Sequence record: NC_019725.1
Direction: 5' to 3' (one strand)
Origin: Escherichia phage ADB-2
DNA: 50,552 nt
The notes under the pieces are model-generated. The model made no database searches. It had not been told where the DNA came from and saw only the letters and a program-made list of their open reading frames with translations. A program made the translations under genes and the position numbers. Positions 20,015 through 41,017 of the stretch are shown in pieces (positions within the stretch are counted from its first letter, which is position 1; the number at the start of each line of letters is the position of its first letter).

Positions 20015-20042
20015 CATAAAAACACTTTGACGCTTTAACAAA

Positions 20043-20063
20043 AAGTGCTATTATTGAAGCCGT
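20043..20063 (-). promoter_or_regulatory. conserved intergenic element (copy 15, antisense to late genes)
   Basis: rc = TAATAGCACTTTTTGTTAAAG; located between plus-strand late genes. Confidence 0.5.
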
Positions 20064-20067
20064 GAAC

Positions 20068-20096
20068 ATAATCACGGCTTTTTTATTAACTACGGA
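20068..20096 (+). terminator. rho-independent terminator
   Basis: AGCCGTGA-loop-TCACGGCT + TTTTTT. Confidence 0.8.
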
Positions 20097-20105
20097 GAAG
20101 TAATC

Positions 20106-21065
20106 ATGACTACTAAAAAATTTGATGAAGCAGATAAAAGCAATGTTGAAATGTATCTGATCCAGGCTGGCGTAAAACAGGATGCAGCCGCAACGATGGG
20201 TATCTGGACCGCTCAGGAACTACACCGCATTAAAAGCCAGTCCTATGAAGAAGACTACCCGGTCGGCTCCGCTCTACGCGTATTCCCGGTTACAACCGAT
20301 CTTTCTCCGACTGATAAGACGTTTGAATACATGACCTTTGACAAGGTTGGTACGGCTCAGATTATCGCAGACTACACCGACGATCTTCCGCTGGTTGACG
20401 CCCTGGGTACTTCTGAGTTTGGCAAGGTGTTCCGTCTGGGTAACGCGTATCTGATCTCAATTGACGAAATCAAAGCAGGTCAGGCAACTGGTCGCCCACT
20501 ATCAACCCGTAAGGCAAGTGCGTGCCAGTTGGCTCATGATCAGCTTGTTAACCGCCTGGTGTTCAAAGGTTCCGCGCCGCACAAGATTGTGTCCGTGTTC
20601 AATCATCCGAACATCACCAAAATTACCTCCGGTAAGTGGATGGATGGCGCAACTCAGAAACCGGAAACGGCTGAAGCGGAATTGACTCAGGCGATCGAAA
20701 CCATTGAGACGATTACTCGAGGCCAGCACCGAGCTACCAACATTCTGATCCCGCCGTCCATGCGTAAGGTGCTGGCGATTCGTATGCCTGAGACTACCAT
20801 GTCTTATCTGGACTATTTCAAGTCTCAGAACTCAGGTATCGAAATCGACTCTATCGCAGAGCTTGAGGATATTGACGGCGCAGGCACCAAAGGCGTACTG
20901 GTGTACGAAAAGAATCCGATGAACATGTCCATCGAGATCCCTGAAGCATTTAACATGCTGCCAGCACAGCCGAAAGACTTGCACTTCAAAGTGCCTTGCA
21001 CCTCTAAGTGTACTGGTCTTACAATTTATCGCCCGATGACTATTGTCTTAATTACTGGCGTGTAA
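20106..21065 (+). CDS. major capsid protein
   Basis: 319 aa; position after scaffold/decoration genes; flanked by strong terminators suggesting high expression. Confidence 0.65.
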   Translation: MTTKKFDEADKSNVEMYLIQAGVKQDAAATMGIWTAQELHRIKSQSYEEDYPVGSALRVFPVTTDLSPTDKTFEYMTFDKVGTAQIIADYTDDLPLVDALGTSEFGKVFRLGNAYLISIDEIKAGQATGRPLSTRKASACQLAHDQLVNRLVFKGSAPHKIVSVFNHPNITKITSGKWMDGATQKPETAEAELTQAIETIETITRGQHRATNILIPPSMRKVLAIRMPETTMSYLDYFKSQNSGIEIDSIAELEDIDGAGTKGVLVYEKNPMNMSIEIPEAFNMLPAQPKDLHFKVPCTSKCTGLTIYRPMTIVLITGV

Positions 21066-21071
21066 TATTAT

Positions 21072-21099
21072 AGGGGCTAACTTAGTTAGTCCCTTTTTT
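21072..21099 (+). terminator. rho-independent terminator
   Basis: GGGGCTAAC-TTA-GTTAGTCCC hairpin + TTTTTT. Confidence 0.7.
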
Positions 21100-21114
21100 A
21101 TTGGAGAAATCAAA

Positions 21115-21402
21115 ATGGCTAAAGAAAAAACTGTTGTTATCGTAAACGTTGGTGTAGCTCTTCAGATGTTCCGTCTTGAAGATGGCTCCTTTGCTAAAGT
21201 TCTTCCAGATGAAGAGGTCACGCTTCCGGCGTCCGTTCTTGATTTGCCTGGCCTGCGTTGCTTAATTGCTCGCGAAGAAATCGAAGTTAAAGACGACAGT
21301 GCAACCAACCGCAAAATCCGTGCTGAAATGGCAAAGATCACGAAGCCAGATCCGTGGGATAGCAAAAGCGTTAAAGAGCTTGAGGACGGCGGCGAATATT
21401 AA
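21115..21402 (+). CDS. hypothetical structural-region protein
   Basis: 95-aa ORF between two terminators; GGAGAAA RBS. Confidence 0.5.
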   Translation: MAKEKTVVIVNVGVALQMFRLEDGSFAKVLPDEEVTLPASVLDLPGLRCLIAREEIEVKDDSATNRKIRAEMAKITKPDPWDSKSVKELEDGGEY

Positions 21403-21408
21403 TCATCA

Positions 21409-21433
21409 AGGCGCTCATGTAGCGCCTTTTTTA
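21409..21433 (+). terminator. rho-independent terminator
   Basis: AGGCGCT-CATGT-AGCGCCT + TTTTTT. Confidence 0.8.
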
Positions 21434-21445
21434 TGGGGGTAATTT

Positions 21446-21856
21446 ATGAATCAAGAAACTTTAATTGCAGTTGTTGAGCAAATGCGAAAGCTGGTTCCGG
21501 CACTTCGTAAGGTTCCAGATGAAACGCTTTATGCGTGGGTAGAAATGGCTGAGCTTTTTGTATGCCAGAAGACCTTTAAAGACGCATACGTCAAAGCGCT
21601 CGCTCTTTATGCATTGCACCTTGCTTTCCTTGACGGGGCGCTAAAAGGTGAAGATGAGGATCTGGAATCGTACTCACGACGAGTTACGTCATTCTCCCTG
21701 AGCGGTGAATTTAGCCAGACTTTCGGAGAGGTTACAAAGAACCAGTCAGGGAACATGATGCTTTCGACGCCGTGGGGTAAGATGTTCGAACAGCTTAAAG
21801 CGCGACGCCGTGGTCGATTCGCATTAATGACAGGACTCCGTGGAGGATGCCACTAA
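21446..21856 (+). CDS. head-tail connector/adaptor-like protein
   Basis: 136 aa; position between capsid and tail genes. Confidence 0.4.
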   Translation: MNQETLIAVVEQMRKLVPALRKVPDETLYAWVEMAELFVCQKTFKDAYVKALALYALHLAFLDGALKGEDEDLESYSRRVTSFSLSGEFSQTFGEVTKNQSGNMMLSTPWGKMFEQLKARRRGRFALMTGLRGGCH

Positions 21857-22662
21857 TGAACTACTCACAGATTGAAAGTATGGCTCGTAAAGGTGTGGCT
21901 TTCTTCACCGATCCGTCAAGACCTATGAACCTGATAAAGCAAGGTGAATACGGATATGATGAAAACGGATTCGAGATCCCACCGATGGAACAGGTTATTC
22001 CAATATCCGGCGCGACGCGAAGACCGAACGCGCGTGAGATTGACGGGGAAACCATACGCGCCTCAGATATTTTGGGGATCTTCAATAATGATCATGAAAT
22101 AAACGAAGGTGACTATATAGAGATTGATGGCATTCGTCATGTTGTCGTTGATGCTCGCCCGGTTCAGGCGTCACTGGAACCAGTTGCTATCGTCCAGTAT
22201 TGCGGAGGGTATCAGTCGGTGGCTAATTATCAGATTCGTAGATTTCAAGGCGAGATTGATGCGTGGATTAAGGCCGCTGAAAGCACGTTAGAACATGCCA
22301 TTGAAATATTCGTAAGGGATGTTCACGACGCTCTTGTTAGCCGCTCCCCTGTTGATACAGGTCGATTCAAGGGTAACTGGCAGATAACTTTTAACGAAAT
22401 CCCTAACCACGCATTAAACCGATACGATAAAACTGGCGGTGTCGTCAGAGGTGAGGAGCAGGCCAAAACTTATGGCATGTTCAGCCGTGGAGGTGCGATA
22501 ACATCAGTTCACTTTTCAAACATGTTGATTTATGCAAACGCTCTTGAGTACGGTCATTCACAGCAAGCGCCGAGCGGCGTTGTCGGTCTTGTGGCGTTAA
22601 GGCTGAGATCATATATGGCTGACGCAATCAAGCAGGCAAGGAGACAGCAAAATGCACTATGA
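21847..22662 (+). CDS. neck protein (head closure + HK97 gp10-like tail-completion domains)
   Basis: 271 aa; C-terminal TGRFKGNWQ motif typical of HK97 gp10-like proteins. Confidence 0.45.
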   Translation: MPLMNYSQIESMARKGVAFFTDPSRPMNLIKQGEYGYDENGFEIPPMEQVIPISGATRRPNAREIDGETIRASDILGIFNNDHEINEGDYIEIDGIRHVVVDARPVQASLEPVAIVQYCGGYQSVANYQIRRFQGEIDAWIKAAESTLEHAIEIFVRDVHDALVSRSPVDTGRFKGNWQITFNEIPNHALNRYDKTGGVVRGEEQAKTYGMFSRGGAITSVHFSNMLIYANALEYGHSQQAPSGVVGLVALRLRSYMADAIKQARRQQNAL

Positions 22663-23050
22663 GTTATCAGCGGCGGCGCGAGCCGCTTTTCTATCAAAGT
22701 ACAGAGACTTTCCTCACTACATGGAAAACAGAAATTTCACACCGCCGAAGGATGGCGGGATGTGGCTGAGGTTCAACTACATTGAAGGGGATACGCTTTA
22801 TCTATCCATTGACAGAAAGTGTAAATCTTACATCGCAATCGTTCAGATCGGCGTAGTGTTCCCTCCAGGCTCCGGCGTTGACGAAGCAAGATTGAAAGCA
22901 AAAGAGATTGCTGATTTTTTCAAAGATGGTAAAATGCTTAACGTTGGTTATATTTTCGAGGGTGCAATCGTGCATCAAATTGTTAAACATGAAAGCGGGT
23001 GGATGATTCCGGTTCGCTTTACAGTACGAGTAGACACAAAGGAGACTTAA
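22652..23050 (+). CDS. hypothetical tail-region protein (tail terminator/completion candidate)
   Basis: 132-aa ORF immediately upstream of major tail protein. Confidence 0.35.
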   Translation: MHYELSAAARAAFLSKYRDFPHYMENRNFTPPKDGGMWLRFNYIEGDTLYLSIDRKCKSYIAIVQIGVVFPPGSGVDEARLKAKEIADFFKDGKMLNVGYIFEGAIVHQIVKHESGWMIPVRFTVRVDTKET

Positions 23051-23052
23051 TT

Positions 23053-23720
23053 ATGCACTTACCAAATGGCGCACAAATTTTCGTGGAAACCTCTCGAGGG
23101 GTAGAGGTTGAGGCAACCGCTGTCACTAACGCAGAAAATCCTGTTGCTACAGTTGCATCTAAGGGTGACTTGGCAAAAGGTGATTACGTTATTGTAACTC
23201 AGTCAACTTGGGCAAAGATGGTTAGTCGAGTGCTAATTGTTACTGACGCTCAGGAAACAAGTATCACTCTTGCTGGAATTGACACCTCTGATACTCTTGT
23301 TTTCCCGACTGGCGGCACAATGAGCTTCGCAAAAATTACTGGATGGACTGAGATCCCTTGCGTACAGGAGATTGGTCAGGACGGCGGTGAGCAGCAGTAT
23401 TACACTTATCAGTGTTTGTCCGACGATAAAGAGCAGCAGATCCCAACGTTTAAATCTGCGATCTCGCTAACGTACACTTTCGCGCACGAATTTGATAACC
23501 CGATCTACCCTATTCTGCGTAAGCTGGATTCTTCTGGTCAGGTAACTGCGGTTCGGATGTATGTTCCAAAAGCGAACGAGATGCGCATGTGGCTGGTATC
23601 TTGTCTTTTAACGACATTCCATCTACGCAAGTAAACGAAATGGAAACGGTACAACTCGCCGTATCCCTGAAGGGTGATTTCACTTTCGTTTCATCCGCTC
23701 TGGCATCACCTGGTGCCTAA
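23053..23720 (+). CDS. major tail protein (frame disrupted near 23585)
   Basis: Starts at ATG 23053; the -1 frame continues as ...AHVAGILSFNDIPSTQVNEMETVQLAVSLKGDFTFVSSALASPGA to a stop at 23718-23720, followed by GC hairpin. Confidence 0.6.
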
Positions 23721-23733
23721 ATCATATCCACAG

Positions 23734-23760
23734 GGGGCTTGCGCCCCCTTATTCATTTCT
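23734..23760 (+). terminator. terminator-like GC hairpin
   Basis: GGGGGC-TTGC-GCCCCC followed by T-rich TTATTCATTTCT. Confidence 0.5.
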
Positions 23761-23792
23761 GTAAAATCATCGTATCAACTTTATTCGATTAA

Positions 23793-23813
23793 CTTTTAAC
23801 AAAAAATGCTATC
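23793..23813 (-). promoter_or_regulatory. conserved intergenic element (copy 16, antisense orientation)
   Basis: rc = GATAGCATTTTTTGTTAAAAG; lies just upstream of plus-strand chaperone gene but in opposite orientation. Confidence 0.5.
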
Positions 23814-23833
23814 AACCAATCAGGAGAAACATC

Positions 23834-24151
23834 ATGGCTAAATTCAATTTCGTGTTGGGCCAGCTTCCAGACTTCAAACTTCCGGTGACGTTCACCATGC
23901 CAAACGGCGAGGATGCAACTATTATTTTTACAGTGCGCCACCTTTCCAGTAAAGAAGTGCAAGATATGTATGCGAAGCAGGGCGAAATGAATGATAGCGA
24001 TTTCATCACTAAGATCGCGTCAGGCTGGAATCTGGAAGAAGAATTTAACGAAGAGAATACGCGTAAACTGGTACAGTATTATCCTTCCGCAGCGTACAAC
24101 CTGACGGCAACTTACATCAAGGCGCTTGCCGGACACCGCGCAAAAAACTAA
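23834..24151 (+). CDS. tail assembly chaperone (lambda G-like)
   Basis: 105 aa between major tail protein and tape measure; ends with slippery A_AAA_AAC. Confidence 0.7.
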   Translation: MAKFNFVLGQLPDFKLPVTFTMPNGEDATIIFTVRHLSSKEVQDMYAKQGEMNDSDFITKIASGWNLEEEFNEENTRKLVQYYPSAAYNLTATYIKALAGHRAKN

Positions 24152-24468
24152 AAAGGGCGGTTTATCTGTTATATCAGAAACCGCCGACAGAAGAGCAATT
24201 ACGATCGGTTGGCCTCAGTCTTTCTGACTATGAAGACGAGGAGCCGGAAACGATAATCGGCGATACTGAAATGGTGAAGGCGTGGAATGTTTTTACGTCA
24301 ATGCTCACTCAGTGGAGAAGTTCAGGCGCTGGAGCTTATGGTCTTGACTATAATGTTTTGCCTATGTTGTTCAAAATCTATAAAATAGAAGATGAAGAAC
24401 TGGCATTGCAGGACGTTAGAATCATGGAAGCGAAAGCGCTTGAAATGATTGCTAAGCAAAACAACTAA
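23834..24468 (+). CDS. tail assembly chaperone frameshift product (GT-like), via -1 shift at 24142-24148
   Basis: -1 frame is open from the slippery heptamer through 24468 (ORF 24271..24468 is its 3' part). Confidence 0.65.
24142..24148 (+). other. programmed -1 ribosomal frameshift slippery heptamer A_AAA_AAC
   Basis: X_XXY_YYZ heptamer in 0 frame (GCA AAA AAC TAA) at the 3' end of the chaperone gene. Confidence 0.7.
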
Positions 24469-24490
24469 GCCGCCGTTTGGCGGTTTTTTC
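24469..24490 (+). terminator. rho-independent terminator
   Basis: CCGCC-GTTT-GGCGG + TTTTTT. Confidence 0.7.
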
Positions 24491-24506
24491 GTATATAGGG
24501 GGTTAT

Positions 24507-27380
24507 ATGGTTGATAAGGTAGCAGGTCTGTCGCTTGACGTTGATGTGTCAACAGTGCAGCGCGCCGTCAAGTCACTGAAAGAGTTTTCAAAGGCCAACG
24601 ACCAGGCTGCTGATTCTATGGGTTCTTTAATCAATGAGTCAGAGGTTGCAAAACAGAAGGCCAAAGAACACGCTGAACAACTCAAGCGCCAGAGAAAAGA
24701 GTATGAGGCCGTGGAGAAGGCAATCGATCCTACAGTATCAAAAATGGAAAGGTTGAAGATTGCGTCTCAGCAGCTTGATAAACTCTGGCAGCAGGGAGTC
24801 GTTCCAGATGAGACATTTTTCCGTTTGGGTGAAATGCTGGATCTGCAAAACGCAAAACTTGCTCGTAGCCGGGCTATGCTTACGGAAGAAGGTCAGGCGG
24901 CATTGCAGGAAGCGAAAGCAAAAGAGCAGGCGGCAGCACGAAGCAAGGCGTTCATGGATGCCCTGAATGGTCAAGTTAACGCGATCGGCAAGACTCATGC
25001 TGAATTGATGGAACTGAAAGCGGCTGAGCTTGGTTTATCGAAAGAAGCAGCACCACTAATCGCAAAACTTAAAGATCAAGGCCGGGCTATGAATGCAGCA
25101 GGTATTAGCGCCGGGGAATACAGGCAAGCAATGCGAATGCTTCCTGCACAGATTACCGACGTCGTTACATCTCTTGCGTCCGGCATGCCAGTTTGGATGG
25201 TTGCCATCCAGCAAGGCGGTCAAATCAAGGACTCGTTCGGCGGGATTGGTAATACGTTTAAAGTGTTGCTGAGTTATATTAATCCAGTCACAGCAGGTAT
25301 TGGCGTTCTTGTTGGTTCTTTAGGTCTTCTGGCGAAAGCTGGTTATGACTCTTACAAGTCAATAACTGATATTCAGAATGCGCTTATTGAGACTGGCGGT
25401 TATGCGGGTGTTACGGCTGAAGAGCTTGATTCAGTGTCTAAAAAGATCGCGCAGACAAGCAACTCAACCATTGGGAGTATTCGCGAGATTGTAACGGAGT
25501 TGGCAAGTTCTGGTAAGTACACCCGAGAGCAGATCCAGAACATCACTAAGGCTACCGCAGAGTGGTCAGCGTCAACAGGAAAATCAGCAAGTCAAATTAT
25601 TGCTGAGTTCGACAAAATCGCAAGTGATCCGGTAAAAGGTCTGAAGAAGTTAAACGAGCAATATAATTTCCTTGAAAAAGGGCAGCTTACCTATATCGAT
25701 ACATTAAGCCGGACGAAAGGAGAAACTGAGGCTGTATCAGAGGCTACCAAACTATTCGCAGACGTAATGGAAAAGCGAATGAAGTCGATCGCGGATAACG
25801 CTACTCCTCTGGAAAAGATGTGGAGCGATATTAAACAATGGGCTTCGGACGCGTGGGGATGGGTTGGTGATCATACGCTTGGTGCGCTAAACCTGATTAT
25901 CGACGTTGTTCAGGGTACAGTGATTCAGGTTAAAATGATTCTTGCGAAGGGTGATGAGTACATCTCAAATTTTATCGCCTCAGCCATAAAGGCAACTCAG
26001 TCACTGCCTGGAATGAGTGATTTCGGCGCTGATGTGCTGAAGGAGCAGGAGAACATTGTAAAAAGTTCTCGCGACAACTACGATCAGTTAGCTTCAGAGC
26101 TTGACGCTATTAACGCTCGCGTAGAAAAAGGCGAGATGGGATACGTTGAAGCGATGAAGCAGCGTCGCACTCTTGAAAAGCAGTACAGCGAGGAAACTAA
26201 GGAAGCAATAAGGAAAGAAGCAGAAGAGATCGAGAAGCGAAACCGAGAACGAAATAAGCAGTCGAAAATTGTGCGCTCACCGACAGAGCAATTCGACAAG
26301 GAGTTAATTTCACTCAAGGCTCAACTTAAGGTATTGCAGGAGCACAAGGAGATCGGTCAAAAACTTTCCGCGCAGAGAAAAGCGCTGTTTACGACCGAGG
26401 CGACGATTGCTGTTCTTCGTGAAGCCAGTTCCAAGCGTCAGTTGTCTGCGGAAGAAAAAGCATTGTTGGCAAGTCAGGAGAAGGTTGTAGAACTTGCTAA
26501 ACAGAAGGCTGAGATTGGCGATCAGATTGTCAAGCAACAGCAGTTGAACGCACTTACCGACAAATCACTGAAGTTTGTCAATGAGATGACGGCGGCGACG
26601 GAACAGCTTAACGCTTCACGAGGTCTTAGTACTCGCGACATGGAACGACAAGCTGAACTAGCTAAAATCACCACTGATTACATCAACTCCGGCGGCGGTG
26701 AAGGAGACGAAAAACTCCAGAACATGATTAAGGCGCAAAATGATTACTACGCTGCGGAAGATGCCAAGCGAGCTGACTGGTTGGCAGGTGCTGAAAGTGC
26801 TTTTGCTGATTACGGTGATGCAGCAATGGATATGTACGGCAATGTTAACGAGATCGCGTCAAGTGCCCTTAACGGAATGTCAGATATGATGGTTCAATTT
26901 CTGACCACAGGAAAAGCGAACTTTGAGGACTTTGCGAAAAATATAATCGGCATGATTATAAAGATGATTGCTCAGATGGTAATCTTCAATACGATCTCAG
27001 GCATGATGGGCGGTAAGACGTGGAGCTTTGCTGGAGGGGCGTCGTCTGGTGCTTCTGCGGCATCACAGGCAACCCCTACGCCTGCCGTCTCTGGTTTTAG
27101 GTCTTTATCTTCAGGCGTCGCTGTTACCTCGCTTGCTGCCGCTGCGGGTAGTGTTGCAACATCTGGATTTAACGCATCTAAATCAGCACCGAAGGCAGTA
27201 AACCAATCAGCAGGCGGGACGGTCGTTGATGTTAGGGGTATGGAGGTTAAGGTTGATAACGGTTCAGATCCGAGAGGAATTTCTCAGGGCGTAGAAATTA
27301 TGTTCAAAAAAATGATTCGCGAGTCTTGTTCGCAGGGCGGTGAGGTTTATAATTACATTCAGGAAAAAACAGGAGGCTAA
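24507..27380 (+). CDS. tail tape measure protein
   Basis: 957 aa, long helical/coiled-coil regions, hydrophobic segment, position after G/GT chaperones. Confidence 0.85.
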
Positions 27381-27382
27381 TA

Positions 27383-27736
27383 ATGGCGACACTTGACACT
27401 TTCGGTTGGTGTACGCAGGTTCAAGGGGGCGGTGGCTCCCTTACCACTACCAATAATGACCGCTCCATCCAGTTTGGTAACGGCTACATGCAGCTTGCAT
27501 CATCTGGATTTAACACCACTCGACGCGAGTATTCAGTTGTCTATGCTGGGGAAGATTTCATGGCTGTTTACGACTTCTGCAACTCTCACCGCATTAAACC
27601 GTTCGCATGGACGCCGCCGGACGGGAAGATCGGAATATGGGTTGTCAAGCCCAACAGTTTGGGAGCGAAGCCAGTATCACGCGACGTGATGGAGATTAAC
27701 GTTACGTTTATGGAGCAGTTTACATCTATGGAGTAA
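27383..27736 (+). CDS. minor tail protein (lambda M-like)
   Basis: 117 aa immediately after tape measure, before L/K/I/J-like genes. Confidence 0.6.
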   Translation: MATLDTFGWCTQVQGGGGSLTTTNNDRSIQFGNGYMQLASSGFNTTRREYSVVYAGEDFMAVYDFCNSHRIKPFAWTPPDGKIGIWVVKPNSLGAKPVSRDVMEINVTFMEQFTSME

Positions 27737-27749
27737 CGACATATAACAA

Positions 27750-27775
27750 AAGCCCGCCTTGCGCGGGTTTTTTTG
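27750..27775 (+). terminator. rho-independent terminator
   Basis: CCCGCCTTGCGCGGG + TTTTTTT; followed by TGtAGAAT box. Confidence 0.8.
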
Positions 27776-27815
27776 TAGCTGTAGAATGGTTGCAGGTAAA
27801 CAAGAGGAAAAATCA

Positions 27816-29924: not shown

Positions 29925-29929
29925 AATTA

Positions 29930-29953
29930 ACCCGCCTTGCGCGGGTTTTTTTT
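29930..29953 (+). terminator. rho-independent terminator
   Basis: CCCGCCTTGCGCGGG + TTTTTTTT. Confidence 0.8.
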
Positions 29954-29957
29954 CGCC

Positions 29958-29965
29958 TGTATAAT
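29958..29965 (+). promoter_or_regulatory. extended -10-like box TGtATAAT
   Basis: Immediately after terminator, 13 nt upstream of element copy 17 and 37 nt upstream of the J-like ATG. Confidence 0.4.
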
Positions 29966-29977
29966 GAGTCCACCGAT

Positions 29978-29998
29978 AAATAGCACAAAAAGGTAAAC
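29978..29998 (+). promoter_or_regulatory. conserved intergenic element (copy 17, degenerate)
   Basis: AAATAGCACAAAAAGGTAAAC. Confidence 0.45.
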
Positions 29999-30001
29999 AT
30001 C

Positions 30002-33000: not shown

Positions 33001-33419
33001 GCGTCAAGCTGGGTCTGAAATACAACGGGCAGGAATATAGCGCAGGCATGGCTATGTCTCTGATTGGTTCCGGCGCAGCTGTTAAGGCGCAAATTCTATT
33101 CGAGGCGTCACGATTTGCAATCATGACAGGGATGAACGGTCAGACTCAGTATCCTTTCGTTGTTGAAGGTAATCAGGTGATTCTTAATAGCGCCATCATT
33201 AAGAACGGATTCATCACGAATGCGATGATTGGTAATGTTATTCAATCGAATAACTATGTCGTTAACAAGGCTGGCTGGAGACTTGACAAGGGTGGAACAT
33301 TCGAAAACTACGGAAGTGACGGTGAGGGTGCAATGAAACAAACTAACACCACAATATCTGTTAGGGATGCGAATGGTCGCCTGAGGGTTCAGATTGGCAG
33401 GTTGACTGGCTCATGGTAA
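30002..33419 (+). CDS. central tail fibre / host specificity protein (lambda J-like), two frame disruptions (~30232 and ~30808)
   Basis: Three consecutive ORFs in frames each offset by -1; segments align colinearly to lambda gpJ (e.g. SRTYNGNW|DGTFKKAWTNNPAWVLYDLM vs lambda QYSGIWDGTFKPAYSNNMAWCLWDML; DKWALYEAAQYCDQMVPDGKGGTEPRY). Confidence 0.8.
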
Positions 33420-33425
33420 TATCAA

Positions 33426-33450
33426 GGGCATCGAGAGATGCCTTTTTTTG
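33426..33450 (+). terminator. rho-independent terminator
   Basis: GGCATC-GAGA-GATGCC + TTTTTTT. Confidence 0.8.
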
Positions 33451-33461
33451 GAGGATTTATT

Positions 33462-33766
33462 ATGGCGTACGGTATATCAACTTGGGACGCAAATGGCGTT
33501 TATAATAACTATGGAATTAAGCCCGTTACGGTTGTTGGTTGGAACTTCTTGTCAGCAGGCCAGAATTCAGCATCGTTCAGCTATCAAGTGCCTCCTGGTA
33601 TGCATGTGACTACGTTATAAGCCTTGACGATGGCGCCATTAGTGGGCCTGGCAGGAAAATTATTGCTAGCGGTAATACGATAACAGTAACGCCAACAAAC
33701 TCACCTGGGCCAAACGTGTACCCATCATCAAACTGCTACTTAATAGCATATCTGGAGAATGATTAA
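33462..33766 (+). CDS. hypothetical tail-associated protein (frame disrupted ~33608), paralog of next gene
   Basis: MAYGISTWDANG... N-terminus similar to MSYGAFIDVNGN... of 33766..34455; two ORF pieces offset by -1. Confidence 0.4.
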
Positions 33767-34455
33767 TGTCATACGGTGCTTTTATAGATGTAAACGGAAA
33801 CCCATTCATAACCCCGTTATCCACGCCATTCGCCTTATATGCGAGAGGGGAAATTCAATCAGTAAATGTTAGTGGTTCACAGGTTGCGGAGAGATATGTT
33901 CGGATACCTACAGGTGTTCCGGTTATAGCTTTTTGCAAAACAACAAACACGCAGCAGGGGACCGCGCTTTCAGCCTTTACTTTCAGAAGCGGACCCAATG
34001 TTGGAACTGTTTATATAAGGGGGACAAATCCAGCAAACCAATCATACACGCTAACATATTACATATTTGCCATATTTGAGCAGTCACTACCGAGCTGGGG
34101 TATGGCAATATGGGATGCGTCAGGAAAGCTAGTGCTGACAAATGAGACAAAAGTCCTTAGTGATTTGGTTACAATCGGCACTCCTGGGTACGCTGGCGGT
34201 GGGCTAAACATAGACGCAACACTCAGCGGAAGCTACGCAGTTGTCCCAACTATACTTGGCAACTATCAAGTTGTTATCGGCAGATTGCCAACTGGGCAAC
34301 CCATAATAGGAAACTCGACAGCAGGCAGTTCATGCAGATACAACGGGAGCACAACGAGAATAAATGCAGCAGCAACCACTGCGGCAGGTCAGATAATGAA
34401 CACTACGAATAATGGAAATATTATAACAGCAATAAAAACGGCAGCATACGACTAA
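33766..34455 (+). CDS. hypothetical tail-associated protein (possible receptor-binding accessory)
   Basis: 229 aa, Gly/Thr/Asn-rich; last gene of tail block. Confidence 0.45.
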   Translation: MSYGAFIDVNGNPFITPLSTPFALYARGEIQSVNVSGSQVAERYVRIPTGVPVIAFCKTTNTQQGTALSAFTFRSGPNVGTVYIRGTNPANQSYTLTYYIFAIFEQSLPSWGMAIWDASGKLVLTNETKVLSDLVTIGTPGYAGGGLNIDATLSGSYAVVPTILGNYQVVIGRLPTGQPIIGNSTAGSSCRYNGSTTRINAAATTAAGQIMNTTNNGNIITAIKTAAYD

Positions 34456-34480
34456 GCCCCTTTCGGGGCTTTTCTTTTAC
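34455..34480. terminator. terminator hairpin between convergent genes
   Basis: AGCCCC-TTTC-GGGGCT + TTTCTTTT. Confidence 0.65.
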
Positions 34481-34704
34481 ATCGAGCAATCGTGAGACTT
34501 GAAGTTATTCTCTGATACGTAATGGAATGAGAATGGATACCCAGCACGTAACAGCATCTCATCACCGCGCATCTTTGATCCAAAAACGGAAACCAAGTAC
34601 TCTGCGTCACCTGATTCATAAATCGCAGTACAAGTGCGCTCAGGCATCGATGAGCAACCAGTCAGGATGAATGCCGCAGCAATAATGGTGATTAATTTTT
34701 TCAT
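34477..34704 (-). CDS. small lipoprotein, candidate superinfection-exclusion protein (Cor/Llp-like)
   Basis: MKKLITIIAAAFILTGC... lipoprotein signal with lipobox LTGC; 75 aa; located directly after tail genes on opposite strand as in T1/phi80/T5. Confidence 0.6.
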   Translation of the reverse strand: MKKLITIIAAAFILTGCSSMPERTCTAIYESGDAEYLVSVFGSKMRGDEMLLRAGYPFSFHYVSENNFKSHDCSM

Positions 34705-34770
34705 TTGCACGTCCTCGTCGTTAGTGTGATTGCATTGTATGTCGCATTTACTTTTATTGCAATAGCGCAA

Positions 34771-35230
34771 TTACAATTTTTTCGTGTAACGGGTGTCTAT
34801 TTTTGTAATCGGAGATGGTGTTACAAAATCCACCCCATCAGAACGCAGGTAGATATGATAAAAACTCTATATAATATATATAGATAGATAATATTTAATT
34901 TTAGCTTTATATATATAATTATTGTTGTGTAACAGTTGTCTATCATGTAACAGGTGATTTGATTGATTCGTCAAATTTCTATCATATATGTTCAAAATTT
35001 AATCAATCTTGATTCTATTCATGGATATCTGTGTATTTCTAAGAAAAAGCGGTTACAAGTATTACGAAATAGACACCACATAAAAACAGGATTAAGCCAT
35101 TGATTCTGTTGATGCTGATTGTAACTTGAACGATATAGACACGCTATTACACACCAATTACATGTATCCGATTGACTAAACGCTGTTAATGGCTATAATG
35201 GATTCATCGTAAACGAAGGAGATAAGCGCA
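34771..35230. promoter_or_regulatory. second AT-rich repeat-rich intergenic region
   Basis: No convincing ORF; shares GTGTCTAY/ATAGACAC, TAACAGTTGTCTA and GATTGATTG words with region 3223..3854. Confidence 0.5.
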
Positions 35231-36295
35231 ATGTTCCAGGTATTCACATCAAGTCAGCTTTCTAATGACGAGTATCATAGCAACGAAGGTTGGGCGGCAG
35301 AGTATGTAAGCGGATCGAGCCTTGCAGAAATTTATCAAACTTGCCCGGCTAACTGGCGATTCAAGAAGAACGAGACTACTAAAGCGCTGGAGTTCGGTAC
35401 TCAGTCGCACACTAACTTTGAGAGTCGAGATCTGTTTACTGCAACGTATGCGCGTTGTCCTGCTCCGTCAGAGTTTAAAGATCTTATTACTTCGCAAACG
35501 GCACTGGCAGCAAAATTAAAATCTTTTGGCCTGAAAGGTACATCCGGTAAGCAGTACCCTGACCTCATCAAAATGATGGTTGATTGCGGTGAAGATCTCA
35601 ATGTTCAATATCTTATTGAACTGATTGCTGAAGCTGAGGCGCGCGCTGAAGGAAAGCAACTGGTTGACGCTGATAAATATGATGCCTGTATGAAGATGAG
35701 GGCCATTCTTGAGCAAAATCCCGATCATGAAGCGTGCATCAATAGCGAAACTGCGCAGCGTGAGATCTCAATCTTCGGTGAGATATCCGGCGTCAAGGTT
35801 AAGGTTAGACTTGACCATCTGGACTACAAAGAGAATGTACCAGGTCGTGTGCTGACTGGTTATGATGAGAATGGAGATCCGGTATTCGAAGACGTTATTT
35901 TCCCGGAAGCACTGATTATCACCGACTTCAAAACAACGATGAGCGCAAATCCGTTGGAGTTCCCGCGCCTTGCATATAATCACGGGTATTATCTGAAAAT
36001 GGCCTTGCAGCATGATCTGCTACGACGCGCAATCCAGGCTGGCGCTTTTGAAGGCAACTTCCCTGAAGATATCCCGATCGTAGTTAGATTGCTTGCGCAG
36101 GAGAAAAAAGAGCCTTATATCGCACTGGCTTACCGTATGACTATGGAGCAAATCAGGATCGGTCGTAACCAGTACATTAGCGTAGTCCACACTTACAAGG
36201 CTTGCTCTGAAATGGATGTTTGGCCTGGGTACGCTGGCGACGCAAGCGAGATCGAACTTGAAACGCCATCATGGGTGCGTTACCAAAATAAGTAA
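35231..36295 (+). CDS. PD-(D/E)XK-family recombination exonuclease
   Basis: 354 aa; RLDHLDY...ITDFKTT resembles D...(D/E)xK nuclease core; first gene of exonuclease-Erf-SSB module. Confidence 0.6.
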   Translation: MFQVFTSSQLSNDEYHSNEGWAAEYVSGSSLAEIYQTCPANWRFKKNETTKALEFGTQSHTNFESRDLFTATYARCPAPSEFKDLITSQTALAAKLKSFGLKGTSGKQYPDLIKMMVDCGEDLNVQYLIELIAEAEARAEGKQLVDADKYDACMKMRAILEQNPDHEACINSETAQREISIFGEISGVKVKVRLDHLDYKENVPGRVLTGYDENGDPVFEDVIFPEALIITDFKTTMSANPLEFPRLAYNHGYYLKMALQHDLLRRAIQAGAFEGNFPEDIPIVVRLLAQEKKEPYIALAYRMTMEQIRIGRNQYISVVHTYKACSEMDVWPGYAGDASEIELETPSWVRYQNK

Positions 36296-36369
36296 ACGGC
36301 ACAAATAGCTAAACAAATAATTAATGAGGTGTTATAATGCACCTCATACACCAATCAGGAGAAGTTAAG

Positions 36370-37017
36370 ATGCAATTATCACCAGAAACAAACGAAATCC
36401 TTCCGGCTCTGTTCAACGCTCGCAACAAATTTGCTAAAGCAAAGAAGGATGCAAAAAACAATCACCTGAAAAATTCATACGCAACGCTTGATGCGATGAT
36501 GGCGGCAGTAAGCCCAGCGCTAACCGATAACGATATCATGATCCTGCAATCAATGCTGGATACAAGCACGGAAACGACCTTCCACCTTGAAACTATGCTG
36601 ATTCACAAATCCGGGCAGTGGGCCAAATTCTTCATGATGATGCCTATTGCAAAACGCGATCCGCAAGGCGTAGGATCTGCAATGACTTACGCTCGACGCT
36701 ACTCACTCGCTGCGGCGTTGGGGATTAGTCAGAGTGATGACGATGCTCAGCTTGCAGTGAAATCTGTAAAGGACTGGAAAAAAGAACTTGATGCGTGTGA
36801 AGACATCGAATCACTGAAAGATGTGTGGGCCAACGCTTACCGACAGACGGACACGGCGAGCAAGTCAATCATTCAGGATCACTACAACGCACTTAAGGCT
36901 AAGTTTGAGATCGGTAAAGCTCGTGGCATTCGCCCAGCGCAACCGGAACAGAAAAAACAGGTTGAAGCAACGAGCGCGAAGACTGTACAATCTCAATCAA
37001 TCACCAACTTCGAATAA
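36370..37017 (+). CDS. erf: ERF-family single-strand annealing protein
   Basis: GSAMTYARRYSLAAALGI hallmark of ERF superfamily; preceded by CCAATCAGGAGA leader. Confidence 0.75.
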   Translation: MQLSPETNEILPALFNARNKFAKAKKDAKNNHLKNSYATLDAMMAAVSPALTDNDIMILQSMLDTSTETTFHLETMLIHKSGQWAKFFMMMPIAKRDPQGVGSAMTYARRYSLAAALGISQSDDDAQLAVKSVKDWKKELDACEDIESLKDVWANAYRQTDTASKSIIQDHYNALKAKFEIGKARGIRPAQPEQKKQVEATSAKTVQSQSITNFE

Positions 37018-37062
37018 TCACCAGGCGACTTCGGTCGCCCATAAATTTTAGGAGAGAAAATC

Positions 37063-37479
37063 ATGCATATTATCACTGGCGAGATCAGAAAAGAACCTAA
37101 GATTCTGGAACGTAACGGCGGGAATACTTATATCATCGAACTGGCAGAAAGCTACAAGCCTCGTGATGGCGATCGCGAATACACAAACTATACATTCTTT
37201 TTTAGTGACGGTGGAAAGCCCGGACTTGCTGACTGGTATCGTGATGCATTCCAAGTTGGTAGAGTGATCTCAGTATCTTGCGAGACGTTGAAGATCTCAT
37301 CCCGCGAGCACAACGGAACGGTTTACAATTCATTGCAGGCTGCTGATTTTCCTAAGTTGGTATTCAGCCAACGAGGGCAAGGTAATCAACAACACCGAGC
37401 ACCTCAGCAACAACAAAGCGCCCAGCAACAGCCACAACCAAATCCTCAGTCAACTTTTGACGATGATATCCCATTCTGA
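37063..37479 (+). CDS. ssb: single-stranded DNA-binding protein
   Basis: 138 aa; Gln/Pro-rich linker and canonical C-terminal tip DDDIPF. Confidence 0.85.
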   Translation: MHIITGEIRKEPKILERNGGNTYIIELAESYKPRDGDREYTNYTFFFSDGGKPGLADWYRDAFQVGRVISVSCETLKISSREHNGTVYNSLQAADFPKLVFSQRGQGNQQHRAPQQQQSAQQQPQPNPQSTFDDDIPF

Positions 37480-37484
37480 CAACA

Positions 37485-37508
37485 AAAAGGGGCCAACTGG
37501 CCCCTTTC
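37485..37508. terminator. bidirectional terminator between convergent ssb and tail-fibre genes
   Basis: AGGGGCCAACTGGCCCCT hairpin; T-run on the minus strand side. Confidence 0.7.
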
Positions 37509-37510
37509 AT

Positions 37511-39373
37511 CTACCCTCTCAATTCTGAAATTATCTCCTTGAGTTCTTCAATTTCTGCCGCCATTCTCTTACATTCACGAATCGCATATTGTGCGCACCC
37601 CATCAAGTCCATCACGATAGGGTTAACGTCTACCGATGGACGGTCGCGCGTCTTACCCCCGACGATGGCGTTAGTCTCGGGGTCCACCTCCACATCGTAC
37701 GTCTCCTCACGGTGTTTGATGTATTGAGGTGCAATCTCTTCGGCCTCTTCGGCAATTATGCCGAAGCGGACGCGCTCCTGCACATCGTCCTTATATACGT
37801 AGTGCACCATGCGCATTTGTTCAATGCGTGCAACCGCTTCTGTAACGTCTGCATCGGAGATATCTTTCTTAAAGTCCCGCCCCGATGTGCCTTGCAAGGC
37901 AAGAACACCACCAGATGAAGGCCAATTGACCGTAAAGCCAGTGCCGTCGCCCTTCTCAAAATATTTATAGATGAGGTTACTATTGATGTTAACCGTATCC
38001 CACATCGTACGAAAGTTACCAGCCGGTACTGACTCTTTCCCGTTGTTTAGGACGAAAGACAACACTGAAGCTGTCGCTGTTGGGCGGACCGTGATATCTC
38101 GATGACAAACCAGGCCGCTCACCCCCGATCCAGAGATCTCCATAAAGGTATCGCGGTACGCGCCCGACGCGTCATATGCGTGCCACTTAAAATTACCCGC
38201 GGCGTCGTTAATCCCCATGCGCCAGCGTACTTTATCGGCGGAATCAGCCCAACATACGCCACCAAAGCCCGACCCGCTCTGCTTAAGGATTAATCCATCT
38301 TGGGAGTCTCCGTTAGATTTGAATTGGCGGAACTCGGCGACGTTATCGACGCGCCCGGTGCCACCTGATCCAATCGGCAGCGGAATAGCTTTTCCGCTGG
38401 CATTATCCCAAGCCCCCCAATCACTATTATCTTTTATGTAAATCCATTTTGATTTAGATTTTGTTTTTACCTGCGTCTCTCCGTTATTCTCAGATTGAAC
38501 AAACCTATCTACACCTAAATTCTCCACTGCCGCACCAATACTTGATAAGTCGCTTAGGTTGGCATTCTTCTTAAGAAGATTGGATGCATCAACGCTATTT
38601 GCTGCGTCTTTAGCTTCCTGTGCGCTGACTGCCGCTGCATCTTTTGCGCTAACCGCTGTATCACGCGCCGACTGTGCATCATTTTTTGCTGAGGTTGCAG
38701 TTTGCGCAGCCGTCTGAGCATTGTTAACGTAGACTGACAGATCGCCTTTTGCGTCATTGATTGCCTGAATTGCCGCCGCCTCTTCTGTGTCGATGTGCGC
38801 AACCGCCGCTGATTCTTTAGCGCCTACATCTGTGATAGCTTGGTCTTTTGCTGCATTGATGCTACCGACCGCTCCGTCAACAATTTGCTGTACCTGACCT
38901 TTAGTGGCATTAGCCTCGTCACGCGCTGCATTCGCTGAGTCGCGAGCAAGTTCAGCTTGATTCTGTGCAGATTCAGCGGCTGATTTGTTAGCCTTAATTT
39001 CTTCAACGATGCGGTTAAGGTTATCCATATCCAGGCTCGCAATGATATCCATTGCCCCTGCAATCTCAGTCTCTTTGCTTTGATAGTACCGAAGCGTCTC
39101 GGCAACGTTTTGAGCCAATCCGTTAACAGTCAGTGAATCGTTAAGCAAGATCACATACTTTCCGTCAGCGGCAGTCTGACCATCAGTAGAGATAGCCTTT
39201 AACTCTGTGTCGCTCACGATGTCGCTGATTACCGCCAGCTTAATCGGTTGCTCTAGGAATACGATAGTTGCACCGACTCTAATCAGAGCAAGCTGATCTT
39301 TCCATTTTGTGTCGGTTCCGTGAACCGTTCCGTCTGCATCCATTGATGCTGTGCCGCGTCTATATAAAGCCAT
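37511..39373 (-). CDS. tail fibre protein with C-terminal intramolecular-chaperone (peptidase S74-like) domain
   Basis: 620 aa; Ala/Asp/Gln-rich repetitive shaft; C-terminal ...RFGIIAEEAEEIAPQYI... resembles the self-cleaving chaperone domains of T5 L-shaped fibre/endosialidases; AAGGAG RBS. Confidence 0.7.
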   Translation of the reverse strand: MALYRRGTASMDADGTVHGTDTKWKDQLALIRVGATIVFLEQPIKLAVISDIVSDTELKAISTDGQTAADGKYVILLNDSLTVNGLAQNVAETLRYYQSKETEIAGAMDIIASLDMDNLNRIVEEIKANKSAAESAQNQAELARDSANAARDEANATKGQVQQIVDGAVGSINAAKDQAITDVGAKESAAVAHIDTEEAAAIQAINDAKGDLSVYVNNAQTAAQTATSAKNDAQSARDTAVSAKDAAAVSAQEAKDAANSVDASNLLKKNANLSDLSSIGAAVENLGVDRFVQSENNGETQVKTKSKSKWIYIKDNSDWGAWDNASGKAIPLPIGSGGTGRVDNVAEFRQFKSNGDSQDGLILKQSGSGFGGVCWADSADKVRWRMGINDAAGNFKWHAYDASGAYRDTFMEISGSGVSGLVCHRDITVRPTATASVLSFVLNNGKESVPAGNFRTMWDTVNINSNLIYKYFEKGDGTGFTVNWPSSGGVLALQGTSGRDFKKDISDADVTEAVARIEQMRMVHYVYKDDVQERVRFGIIAEEAEEIAPQYIKHREETYDVEVDPETNAIVGGKTRDRPSVDVNPIVMDLMGCAQYAIRECKRMAAEIEELKEIISELRG

Positions 39374-39392
39374 AGTATAAACTCCTTAAGTA

Positions 39393-39412
39393 AATAGCAC
39401 GAATTGCTAAGC
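39393..39412 (+). promoter_or_regulatory. conserved intergenic element (copy 18, plus-oriented between minus-strand genes)
   Basis: AAATAGCACGAATTGCTAAGC. Confidence 0.5.
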
Positions 39413-39452
39413 ATAGATTTTATCATTGTGATACACGCCTTGCAATGGGCAA

Positions 39453-39474
39453 TAAAAAACCGCCCGAAGGCGGT
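39453..39474 (-). terminator. rho-independent terminator after primase gene
   Basis: minus strand reads ACCGCCTTCGGGCGGT + TTTTTTATT. Confidence 0.75.
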
Positions 39475-40467: not shown

Positions 40468-40488
40468 GTTTTAACTAAAAATGCTATT
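40468..40488 (-). promoter_or_regulatory. conserved intergenic element (copy 19)
   Basis: rc = AATAGCATTTTTAGTTAAAAC; overlaps stop of 40471..40923. Confidence 0.55.
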
Positions 40489-40956: not shown

Positions 40957-41017
40957 GTTTACTGTATGTCGTGTATTATAGCGTAAACGATACAACGATT
41001 CAAAGGATTAAATAGCC

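Follow-up and report, generated by a model that had tools for sequence, protein, structure and literature searches.

In the papers on the phages TLS (PMC11447400) and Stevie (PMC4319613), the published Drexlerviridae repeat, aaATAGCAC-N3-TTGYTAAAA, is given as aaATAGCACnnnTTGnTAAAA and VWATAGCAYKWWTTGYTAAAAV, respectively, and is described as co-directional with transcription, with no function assigned. About 20 copies of the repeat have been reported in T1. In promoters of the CRP/FNR class II type and the Mor/C promoters of phage Mu, which lack a -35, the activator site has its centre near -41.5. In lambdoid phages, which use a cooperative operator array, CI at PRM/PR represses one promoter and activates the divergent promoter that overlaps it, and the stoperators of mycobacteriophage L5 are short, asymmetric, numerous, intergenic and mostly in one orientation. 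Here, we analysed the copies of the repeat in a window of 50,552 nt, i.e. the whole stretch of Escherichia phage ADB-2 under study, which is that of a T1-like phage (Tunavirus).

Copy number and orientation of the repeat

The published repeat is the element behind all three reversed copies described below, and 14 matches to it with at most three mismatches were observed in the window, against 0.25 expected. Searching with TAGCAY-N3-TTGYTAA at no more than one mismatch gave 24 copies, 20 of which read TAGCAC to TTGYTAA along the direction of the gene downstream of the copy. Three copies, at 20035, 23796 and 39394, have the opposite orientation, and the remaining one, at 3422, lies in a divergent intergenic region (two-sided binomial P ~5e-4 for the orientation bias across the 24 copies). 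An earlier, sequence-only reading of this DNA had singled out these three copies as pointing against local transcription, and this was confirmed; all three are intergenic and match the core without mismatch. Its intervals for the second and third copies (23793-23813 and 39393-39412) were right, while that for the first (20043-20063) is displaced about 8 nt rightward and covers half of the copy.

As in the 21-22-nt repeat of T1-like phages, the copies are many per genome and mainly intergenic; the sequence is identical and the copy number similar, and the centres TTT, GAA and AAA found here are spacer subtypes named in the TLS paper (PMC11447400). Read along the flanking genes, the reversed copies appear as TTARCAA..GTGCTA, within or after sigma-70 promoters, in contrast to the co-directional repeat of the TLS and Stevie papers. 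The element sequence is constant among phages of Escherichia, Klebsiella, Cronobacter and Vibrio. Its core is a near-palindrome, TAGCA-N5-TGCTA, so that three things alone set the orientation: C or A at core position 6, the choice between TGCTA and TGTTA, and the flanks.

Table 1. Coordinates of the element copies and neighbouring features in the window.
Feature	Position	Strand	Sequence or remark
Forward copy at the small terminase gene (terS)	13332..13346	+	abuts TGgTAAAAT extended -10
Major capsid gene sigma-70-type promoter	20027..20054	+	TTGACG, 16 nt, TATTAT; TG before -10
Reversed copy 1 (capsid)	20035..20051	-	+ strand TTAACAAAAAGTGCTAT; minus strand TAGCACTTTTTGTTAA
Terminator hairpin and T-run	20056..20088	+ only	directly after capsid -10; hairpin 20056-20081
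Major tail protein terminator	23732..23749	+ only	terminator call
Chaperone/tape measure sense promoter	23739..23767	+	TTGCGC, 17 nt, TAAAAT; read from sequence
Antisense extended -10	23769..23777	-	TGaTACGAT; 22 nt past the element's TTGTTA
Reversed copy 2 (chaperone)	23796..23812	-	+ strand TTAACAAAAAATGCTAT; minus strand TAGCATTTTTTGTTAA
Degenerate forward copy (J-like gene)	29981..29995	+	TAGCACAAAAAGGTA; 15 nt past TGtATAAT
Tail-fibre gene	39373..37511	-	
Reversed copy 3 (fibre)	39394..39410	+	+ strand ATAGCACGAATTGCTAA (= TAGCACGAATTGCTAA); gene on minus strand
Tail-fibre sigma-70-type promoter	39417..39445	-	TTGCAA, 17 nt, TAAAAT; TG; 9/12
Primase gene terminator	39458..39475	- only	terminator call
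pir gene (T1 orf23/ST23 homologue)	40471..40923	-	150-aa Cro-like DNA-binding regulator (predicted)
Reference copy, pir/helicase divergent region	40936..40952	+	
pir sigma-70-type promoter	40975..41003	-	TTGAAT, 17 nt, TATAAT

Promoters of the forward copies and of the pir/helicase region

About 20 forward copies share one arrangement, namely the element, 22 nt and a -10 hexamer, without a -35. Among the 24 best copies, 18 have TAnnnT 21-23 nt past TTGYTA, against a background of 0.0155 per position (binomial P ~1e-19), and CATAAT or CATTAT stands at 22 nt in two further copies. This fixed spacing is absent from the accessible portions of the TLS and Stevie descriptions (PMC11447400, PMC4319613). 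A -35/-10 scan of positions 1-13400 passed only one of about 15 forward-copy promoters. Start sites, and element positions relative to them, were inferred from the -10 hexamers throughout; the 22-nt spacing then puts the site close to -42, a placement known from activator-dependent promoters. The forward copies thus have the layout of the CRP/FNR class II and Mu Mor/C promoters, except that the candidate binder considered below has a predicted Cro fold; no homology to CRP, Mor or C was found. Among the reversed copies, a -10 at the spacing that would put the site about 41-42 bp before the start, as in class II promoters, is present on the antisense strand at 23796 and absent at 20035 and 39394, so that the capsid and fibre copies depart from that layout.

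The reference copy between pir and the helicase gene serves two divergent promoters. Seen from the helicase gene, the copy is in forward orientation, at about -42 of TATTAT (40974-40979). Seen from pir, it is reversed and spans about +17 to +33, and the pir -10 overlaps the helicase -10 of the opposite strand. This copy is kept in seven further genera. The order sigma-70 promoter, reversed element, RBS, pir was found in more than seven genera (among them Tunavirus, Henuseptimavirus, Webervirus, Kyungwonvirus, Rogunavirus, Veterinaerplatzvirus and Jhansiroadvirus). Moreover, the promoter-embedded forward copy at 13332 was found only in the ADB-2 stretch and T1, and the degenerate copy at 29981 overlaps the RBS of the J-like tail tip gene and is kept in Warwickvirus and Henuseptimavirus. 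Of the copies within or after promoters, those at terS and the J-like gene are in forward orientation, while the capsid, chaperone, fibre and pir genes have reversed ones. The sequence-only reading had offered, as one of two options, that the orientation of the element is irrelevant to its action on DNA; with promoter-linked copies in both orientations, this would fit an operator role.

Reversed copies at the capsid, chaperone and fibre genes

At the capsid gene, the reversed copy fills the spacer between -35 and -10 and supplies the TG and the first two bases of the -10. This promoter was the top sigma-70 match of the promoter scan in 19000-24500 (10/12), and a promoter is annotated at the equivalent capsid site in the SA30RD record. 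Its start is predicted at ~20061, with the element at about -27 to -11, and would fall within the 5' arm of the hairpin that follows; relatives carry a hairpin of different sequence at the equivalent position after the -10. Among 60 related loci, in which capsid protein identity goes as low as 57%, 55 keep the order -35, 2 nt, element, -10, although such loci share ancestry, so that this and the other conservation counts given here do not represent independent events. Fourteen spacer bases are constant in the capsid loci, while the -35, the -10, the flanks and the downstream hairpin vary in sequence. The reversed capsid copy is likewise present in a contig of 49,902 bp (L040), which has the length of TLS.

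The second reversed copy has the terminator of the major tail protein gene before it and the RBS of the tail chaperone gene after it; relative to the sense promoter it spans ~+23 to +39. It is kept in Tunavirinae and most Tempevirinae. The -35 of this promoter sits in the terminator loop, and TTGCnn, 17 nt, TA(A/G/C)AAT was present in all related chaperone-site sequences compared. The antisense -10, on the minus strand, and the sense -10 are back to back, and the former points into the major tail protein gene at its 3' end. At the same antisense offset, 22 of 23 distinct relatives have TAnnnT, most of them with the TG as well, and the spacer between the copy and this -10 is not conserved among them. 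At the fibre gene, the element begins 6 nt past the promoter -10, at about +1 to +17, and ends 5 nt ahead of the RBS; its position and orientation are shared by Tunavirus, Warwickvirus and Henuseptimavirus, and the promoter motif caaTGnTAnnAT is conserved in relatives.

Taken together, each reversed site has a sense -35/-10 pair with 16-18 nt spacing, with the reservation that the chaperone -35 matches just 3/6, because of which that promoter is missing from the scan list. In all three, the element lies between about -35 and +40 of the promoter. In this they resemble repressor operators that overlap a core promoter or follow it: one copy occupies the spacer, one the inferred start and one the DNA transcribed soon after it.

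The sequence-only reading had suggested that promoters in these copies could drive antisense RNAs across structural genes. One site agrees with this: the 23796 copy reproduces, on the minus strand, the complete pattern of a forward copy, and it is the sole reversed copy with a conserved predicted antisense promoter. At the other two, an antisense -10 at the required offset was found in only 2 of 39 related sequences (capsid) and 0 of 17 (fibre). A weak minus-strand match at 20035 (TTGTTA, 17 nt, TATGTT) falls under the scan threshold, and relatives read TGTGTT there; the capsid and fibre copies belong instead to strong sense promoters. That all three copies are promoters, or parts of promoters, for antisense RNAs is in our judgement improbable. 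The same reading had neighbouring hairpins terminate transcription on both strands, which was not confirmed: those at 20056-20081, 23732-23749 and 39475-39458 were each called as terminators on one strand, namely the sense strand of the upstream gene, and have no T-run on the opposite strand.

A candidate operator, its possible binder and the alternatives

On balance, and with confidence only a little above even, we favour the interpretation that the element is the operator of a dimeric regulator, likeliest Pir (T1 gp23), which would activate from -42 and block late promoters. Pir homologues were found in 823 phage records across the family, those of Orf65 in only 63. The structure model of Pir (pLDDT 81.6) has an all-helical Cro fold, with Xfaso 1 Cro and N15 Cro as its best matches (target-normalised TM ~0.7), and Cro proteins bind as dimers to operators of such size and symmetry. 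In published T1 reporter data, Pir represses its own promoter fragment, in which the element lies downstream of the promoter, and activates the dam fragment, in which a forward copy at about -42 is the only notable motif. The pir promoter fragment is also repressed by Orf65, and the orf65 forward-copy promoter is activated by Orf65, which is the pattern that the layout predicts. Several observations speak against Pir as the binder: the T1 orf65 promoter, although a typical forward copy, is unresponsive to Pir; the Pir-responsive T1 hol and recE promoters are without a full copy; and in Vibrio phage Vc1 the element is unchanged although the predicted recognition helix of Pir differs. Moreover, repression of structural-gene promoters by Pir, which is reported to promote lysis, is counter-intuitive.

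If the element is such an operator, the regulator bound near -42 at forward copies would activate the -10-only promoters of early and middle genes. The reversed copies would be a second use of the operator, in or just past the sigma-70-type sense promoters of late operons, where a regulator bound in the capsid spacer, at +23 to +39 or at +1 to +17 could occlude or block RNA polymerase. An activator of early and middle genes would thereby also hold down late structural promoters, in the arrangement found at pir, whose promoter is autorepressed. Binding at the chaperone site may shift polymerase from the sense to the back-to-back antisense promoter, mirroring pir/helicase. Both regions would then resemble PRM/PR in serving two back-to-back promoters from one site, and the predicted Cro-like fold of the candidate binder resembles lambdoid regulators; unlike the lambdoid arrays, however, each promoter here has one isolated operator, and the phage is virulent, with about 25 sites distributed along its genome. 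A wider claim, which we advance tentatively and consider rather unlikely as a whole, is that Pir and the 17-bp site run the entire transcription programme of the T1 family, with ~20 early and middle promoters lacking a -35 being activated and every late sigma-70 promoter braked. The braked promoters would then be those of terS, capsid, chaperone/tape measure, the J-like gene and tail fibre; the pir/helicase and chaperone switches would redirect RNA polymerase, the latter yielding RNA antisense to the major tail protein gene at its 3' end; and late genes would be freed once replicated genomes, with ~25 sites each, titrate the autorepressed regulator.

Three other explanations were weighed against the operator reading. 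The reversed sites might bind no protein, their sequence being either good promoter sequence (spacer and TGnTA) kept by descent or a 5'-leader RNA hairpin; at the capsid site, GTGCTAT does provide the TG and open the -10, and the GAATT-centre RNA of 39394-39410 could fold a 5-bp stem just before the RBS. Promoter spacers are normally not conserved, however, and the 14 capsid spacer bases are kept amid a varying -35, -10 and flanks; the chaperone and fibre copies lie outside the -10. As to an RNA hairpin, the stem of the TTTTT-centre reversed copies would contain an A-C mismatch, the copies show no compensatory changes, and an Rfam search gave no match. We consider this explanation very improbable. 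Little more credence can be given to stoperator-like elongation blocks, as opposed to operators acting on initiation, that would silence late operons in the carrier (pseudolysogenic) state. Such a state has been reported for T1, four of the copies (chaperone, fibre, J-like gene and pir) come after inferred starts, and the general features of L5 stoperators listed above recur here. We know of no temperate-type repressor, however, and L5 stoperators act in one orientation to transcription, whereas the copies in transcribed DNA here have both; the capsid copy sits in a core promoter, outside transcribed DNA; and the strict 22-nt distance to a -10 in most copies, which sets them apart from L5 stoperators, is a promoter property. 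The analogy itself is proposed in the Stevie and TLS genome papers (PMC4319613, PMC11447400).

The binder might also be a host protein, specifically the global regulator Lrp, starting early promoters and holding late ones from injection. Compared with the E. coli Lrp consensus, yAGhAwATTwTdCTr, the 15-bp core agrees in 11-14 of its 15 positions (mean 12; 12-13 for the three reversed copies), a score of 12 being reached by just 0.14% of 15-mers in the window. A host factor would explain how promoters without a -35 could fire ahead of any phage protein, and the constancy of the element across hosts, also where the predicted Pir recognition helix differs, is in line with one. The arms TAGCA/TGCTA fit those of the consensus, but the centre differs; both the C that is invariant at core position 6 and the centre GAA conflict with the consensus. 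Lrp sites are usually clustered and cooperative, whereas the copies here are single and isolated at each promoter. We regard a host protein such as Lrp as an unlikely binder, though somewhat less improbable than the two preceding explanations; the dam and pir reporters respond to Pir in uninfected E. coli.

Reversed copies of the T1-family repeat

Between 19000 and 24000, across genes annotated as decoration, major capsid and major tail proteins, the DNA of phage ADB-2 has 96.5% identity to coliphage T1, and the gene order of the window is that of T1. Therefore, ADB-2 is a Tunavirus of the family Drexlerviridae. The repeat TAGCAY-N3-TTGYTAA is itself already published. In the text available to us, the 2024 genome paper on phage TLS (PMC11447400) describes 18 intergenic copies of aaATAGCACnnnTTGnTAAAA, all along the direction of transcription, mentions similar repeats in T1, Rtp and Rogue1, and counts the function of the repeat among the open questions; the genome announcement of phage Stevie (PMC4319613) calls the same repeat asymmetric and of a single orientation, with about 20 copies in T1. 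The available text of these two papers discusses neither reversed copies nor a fixed relation to a -10 box, and our literature search found no T1 transcriptomics or start-site maps. As far as we could find, the specific architecture and its link to Pir, the Cro-like phage regulator, are new, while the kind of system is familiar.

With up to three mismatches allowed, the motif had 14 matches against 0.25 expected, and 24 copies in the window lay within one mismatch of TAGCAY-N3-TTGYTAA. The core itself, TAGCA-N5-TGCTA, is nearly palindromic; a few asymmetric positions define its orientation, but they do so consistently. We found that 20 of the 24 copies are forward, reading from TAGCAC to TTGYTAA toward the following gene, and one (at 3422) lies in a divergent intergenic region; the other three, at the capsid gene (site 1), the tail chaperone gene (site 2) and the tail-fibre gene (site 3), read the opposite way. 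These reversed copies, which the sequence-only reading had noticed, are real, although it had placed the first about 8 nt too far right; its other two intervals were correct. It had also suggested that the copies could drive antisense RNAs or else work on DNA in either orientation, and that two of them stand beside terminator hairpins active on both strands. The comparative evidence supports an antisense promoter at site 2, and we rejected one at sites 1 and 3; all three hairpins were called on a single strand, the opposite strand having no T-run, which does not support bidirectional action. Our reading is that the reversed copies belong to the late promoters as conserved, probably functional components and are not strays.

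Features at the reversed copies and at related sites in the window
Feature	Position	Strand	Details
Reversed copy, site 1	20035-20051	-	plus strand reads TTAACAAAAAGTGCTAT
Reversed copy, site 2	23796-23812	-	plus strand reads TTAACAAAAAATGCTAT
Reversed copy, site 3	39394-39410	+	plus strand reads ATAGCACGAATTGCTAA
Terminator hairpin	20056-20081	+	directly after capsid promoter
Tail-protein terminator	23732-23749	+	
Predicted sense promoter, chaperone gene	23739-23767	+	TTGCGC (in terminator loop), 17 nt, TAAAAT
Primase terminator	39475-39458	-	upstream of tail-fibre promoter
Forward copy, small terminase gene (terS)	13332-13346		upstream of gene, abuts extended -10 TGgTAAAAT; Tunavirus only
Degenerate forward copy, J-like tail tip gene	29981-29995		15 nt after TGtATAAT, over ribosome-binding site
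Early-region sigma-70 match	3453-3481		TTGACC, 17 nt, TACAAT
Gene starts with CCAATCAGGAG or CCAATCAGAGG (examples)	23816-23826, 1940-1950, 5800-5812, 8100-8112		

Promoter settings of the three sites

On the plus strand, the copy at site 1 lies within the capsid promoter (TTGACG, 16 nt, TATTAT with TG), which scored highest among the sigma-70 matches of 19000-24500; phage SA30RD carries annotations for both this promoter and the terminator. We compared 60 related loci, whose capsid protein identity to that of the window ranged from 100% down to 57%. The order -35, 2 nt, TTARCAA-N3-RTGC, TAnnnT was exact in 55 of them, and the other five deviated by one base or one indel. Fourteen spacer bases are kept while the -35 (TTGACG, TTGCAC, TTGAAC or TTGACC), the -10 (TATTAT, TATCAT, TATATT or TATTCT) and the hairpin vary; the sequence of the hairpin differs among relatives, and Webervirus has an upstream terminator instead. 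Given that promoter spacers are normally unconserved, something probably reads these spacer bases. MerR-type activation from the spacer was rejected because at 16 nt it is not overlong. An antisense -10 at the offset seen in forward copies was present in 2 of 39 distinct sequences.

At site 3, the tail-fibre promoter follows the primase terminator on the minus strand (TTGCAA, 17 nt, TAAAAT with TG), and its -10 is followed by 6 nt, the element, the ribosome-binding site and the ATG at 39373, so that the element would cover about +1 to +17. This order and orientation are kept in other Tunavirus isolates, Warwickvirus and Henuseptimavirus, with caaTGnTAnnAT conserved, while none of 17 distinct relatives had an antisense -10 at the forward-copy offset.

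At site 2, the chaperone promoter was absent from the output of the scan tool because its -35 is only a weak match (3 of 6); nevertheless, TTGCnn, 17 nt and TA(A/G/C)AAT are kept in all related sequences having the site 2 copy. The element would occupy about +23 to +39 of this sense promoter, directly before the ribosome-binding site. On the minus strand, TGaTACGAT stands 22 nt past TTGTTA, and TAnnnT recurs at exactly this offset in 22 of 23 distinct relatives, usually with TG, while the three middle -10 bases and the whole 22-nt spacer vary. From this comparison, the putative antisense hexamer bears the signature of a -10 box under selection. The predicted antisense promoter would read into the 3′-terminal part of the major tail protein gene. 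A single base separates the two -10 boxes, which lie on opposite strands, so both promoters would not be occupied together. A small protein as the product of the antisense promoter was rejected, only unconvincing short ORFs lacking ribosome-binding sites being present, and the 203-nt antisense RNA had an unexceptional fold (z = -1.85) and no clear terminator.

The major tail protein gene (22999-23720) is one base short in the window at 23590-23591 compared with T1 and three other relatives. Therefore, its frame breaks at about 23590, and the C-terminal part resumes in the ORF 23589..23720; the break reflects a sequencing error or else a genuine frameshift. A common motif, CCAATCAGGAG or CCAATCAGAGG, makes up the ribosome-binding region of many genes, and Webervirus has it too.

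Forward copies and the pir/helicase arrangement

A TAnnnT hexamer stands 21-23 nt after TTGYTA, nearly always 22, in 18 of the 24 best copies, against a background of 0.0155 per position (binomial P ~1e-19); in two others, CATAAT or CATTAT takes its place, at 22 nt. No -35 was found at 16-18 nt from the forward-copy -10 boxes. A standard -35/-10 scan of 1-13400 gave 33 promoters versus 26.8 +/- 4.7 in shuffled sequence, which is no excess, and flagged only one forward-copy promoter. Taking the start as 6-8 nt past the -10, the 15-bp core would be centred near -42, and this predicted layout, a -42 site with no -35, is that of activator-dependent promoters. TTGYTA as the -35 was rejected, since the spacing is 22 nt and hairpin extrusion would leave about 6 nt, not 17. 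Hairpins lie between the element and the -10, or enclose the -10, for example at 5743-5800, 6763-6815, 8049-8100, 9609-9660 and 44469-44520; their stem sequences vary among copies, their G-T pairs function on the sense strand only, and several are annotated as terminators in the T1 record. Many forward-copy promoters are followed by a CATCGAAACGA-like leader.

Both settings meet at pir. T1 orf23 (ST23), which encodes Pir and stands between the primase and helicase genes, has the annotation transcriptional regulator; the homologue in the window runs 40923..40471, minus strand. Downstream of the pir promoter (TTGAAT, 17 nt, TATAAT), a reversed element would lie at about +17 to +33, followed by the ribosome-binding site. 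Seen from the opposite strand, this element is in forward orientation and 22 nt away from TATTAT, the predicted -10 of the helicase promoter, which overlaps the pir -10. This layout is kept in Henuseptimavirus, Webervirus, Kyungwonvirus, Rogunavirus, Veterinaerplatzvirus and Jhansiroadvirus, and site 2 mirrors it.

Laganenka et al. (2019) worked in uninfected E. coli with gfp fusions to T1 promoter fragments of at most 150 bp. They reported that Pir repressed its own and the recE promoter and activated the dam and hol promoters; Orf65, a second T1 regulator, repressed the pir promoter and activated its own, and the orf65 promoter was unresponsive to Pir. The pir promoter is the only experimentally autoregulated promoter of the family, and its layout is that of an element in or after an ordinary promoter. 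The sole notable motif of the T1 dam fragment is a forward copy (about -42), a copy lies downstream of the promoter in the pir fragment, the orf65 fragment has a forward copy, and the hol and recE fragments lack a full copy. A model of activation at -42 and repression from downstream fits two Pir results and both Orf65 results. However, the absence of a Pir effect at the orf65 promoter conflicts with it, and two Pir results are left unexplained.

The recE promoter (TTGACT, 16 nt, TATAAT) holds only a half-site, cTGTTAA, in its spacer, which may bear on the reported repression by Pir; farther features upstream of recE include AT-rich short repeats in a tract (tatatataatatatatagatagataata...), tract and promoter falling within 34860-34935 and 35163-35192. 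Upstream of holin itself lie TTGTAT, 17 nt, TAAAAT but no full copy, and at ~46455-46505, upstream of the small gene preceding holin, a degenerate forward copy (TCGCACTAATCGCCAAAA) is followed by a hairpin and TATATT. Within 40409-40486 on the minus strand, another copy overlaps the pir stop codon, and the loop of the hairpin that terminates pir holds a -10-like TAACAT 22 nt downstream of this copy. The arrangement would amount to a promoter embedded in a terminator, and transcripts from it would miss the 5′ arm of the hairpin and could extend into primase.

Candidate binding proteins and proposed operator position

We propose, as the most likely mechanism, that a single regulator has its operator in two kinds of position; Pir is the leading candidate for that regulator. 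That the operator works within promoters in this way is somewhat probable, and Pir as the binding protein is a tentative assignment. Pir homologues occur in 823 phage records, in all Drexlerviridae host groups. The protein has weak P22_Cro and YdaS matches, its PHROG is annotated as transcriptional regulator, and its AlphaFold model (pLDDT 81.6) is an all-helical Cro fold, best matching Xfaso 1 Cro and N15 Cro (target-normalised TM ~0.7). One point against Pir is that the Vibrio phage Vc1 group has a different predicted recognition helix, whereas the element of Vc1 is the same. Across the family, Pir is most strongly conserved in a basic motif at the N-terminus, STGEIDKR..NGNNGTRRGKDKKPRKR, modelled with low confidence; the recognition helix of the helix-turn-helix is less conserved.

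Orf65, by comparison, has homologues in 63 records, nearly all Tunavirus, while the element is also found in Webervirus, Warwickvirus and a Vibrio phage. Therefore, Orf65 was rejected as the family-wide binder, but it may act in Tunavirus; its model is unusable (pLDDT 49) and it has no Pfam match. Similarity between Pir and Orf65 was undetectable, and paralogy was rejected. A division of labour, with Pir on TTTTT centres and Orf65 on GAATT, was rejected because the subtype at orthologous sites changes from genus to genus: at the capsid site it is TTTTT except in Webervirus, which has GAATT, and at the fibre site Tunavirus carries GAATT where Warwickvirus carries TTTTT. Moreover, Webervirus has GAATT copies and no Orf65. 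A second point against Pir is that the core agrees with the E. coli Lrp consensus at 11-14 of 15 positions, while 12 is reached by only 0.14% of the 15-mers of the window; a host factor, with Lrp as the candidate, is a real rival. A role of the element at the RNA level was rejected, with no compensatory changes and no Rfam match.

Not every copy placed within or after a promoter is reversed. Those of terS and the J-like gene are in the late region, forward and not of the -42 type, and the J-like copy is kept in Warwickvirus and Henuseptimavirus. Therefore, orientation appears constrained for copies that would activate and unconstrained for copies that would block, as would be expected of a dimer on a near-palindrome that contacts RNA polymerase from one side. 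The reversed copies are thus informative exceptions, placing one site in two settings, at -42 of promoters without a -35 and in or after structural-operon promoters, and they bear on gene timing in T1, a classic coliphage. They turn an unexplained repeat into a specific, cheaply testable hypothesis with a candidate protein, defined sites and predicted starts on both strands, and give rules for reading promoters in the several hundred Drexlerviridae genomes being sequenced for phage therapy. The copy at 3422-3436, in a large divergent intergenic region (3421-3481), would be centred near -60 of the best sigma-70 match of the early region, which has its -35 16 nt downstream of the copy.
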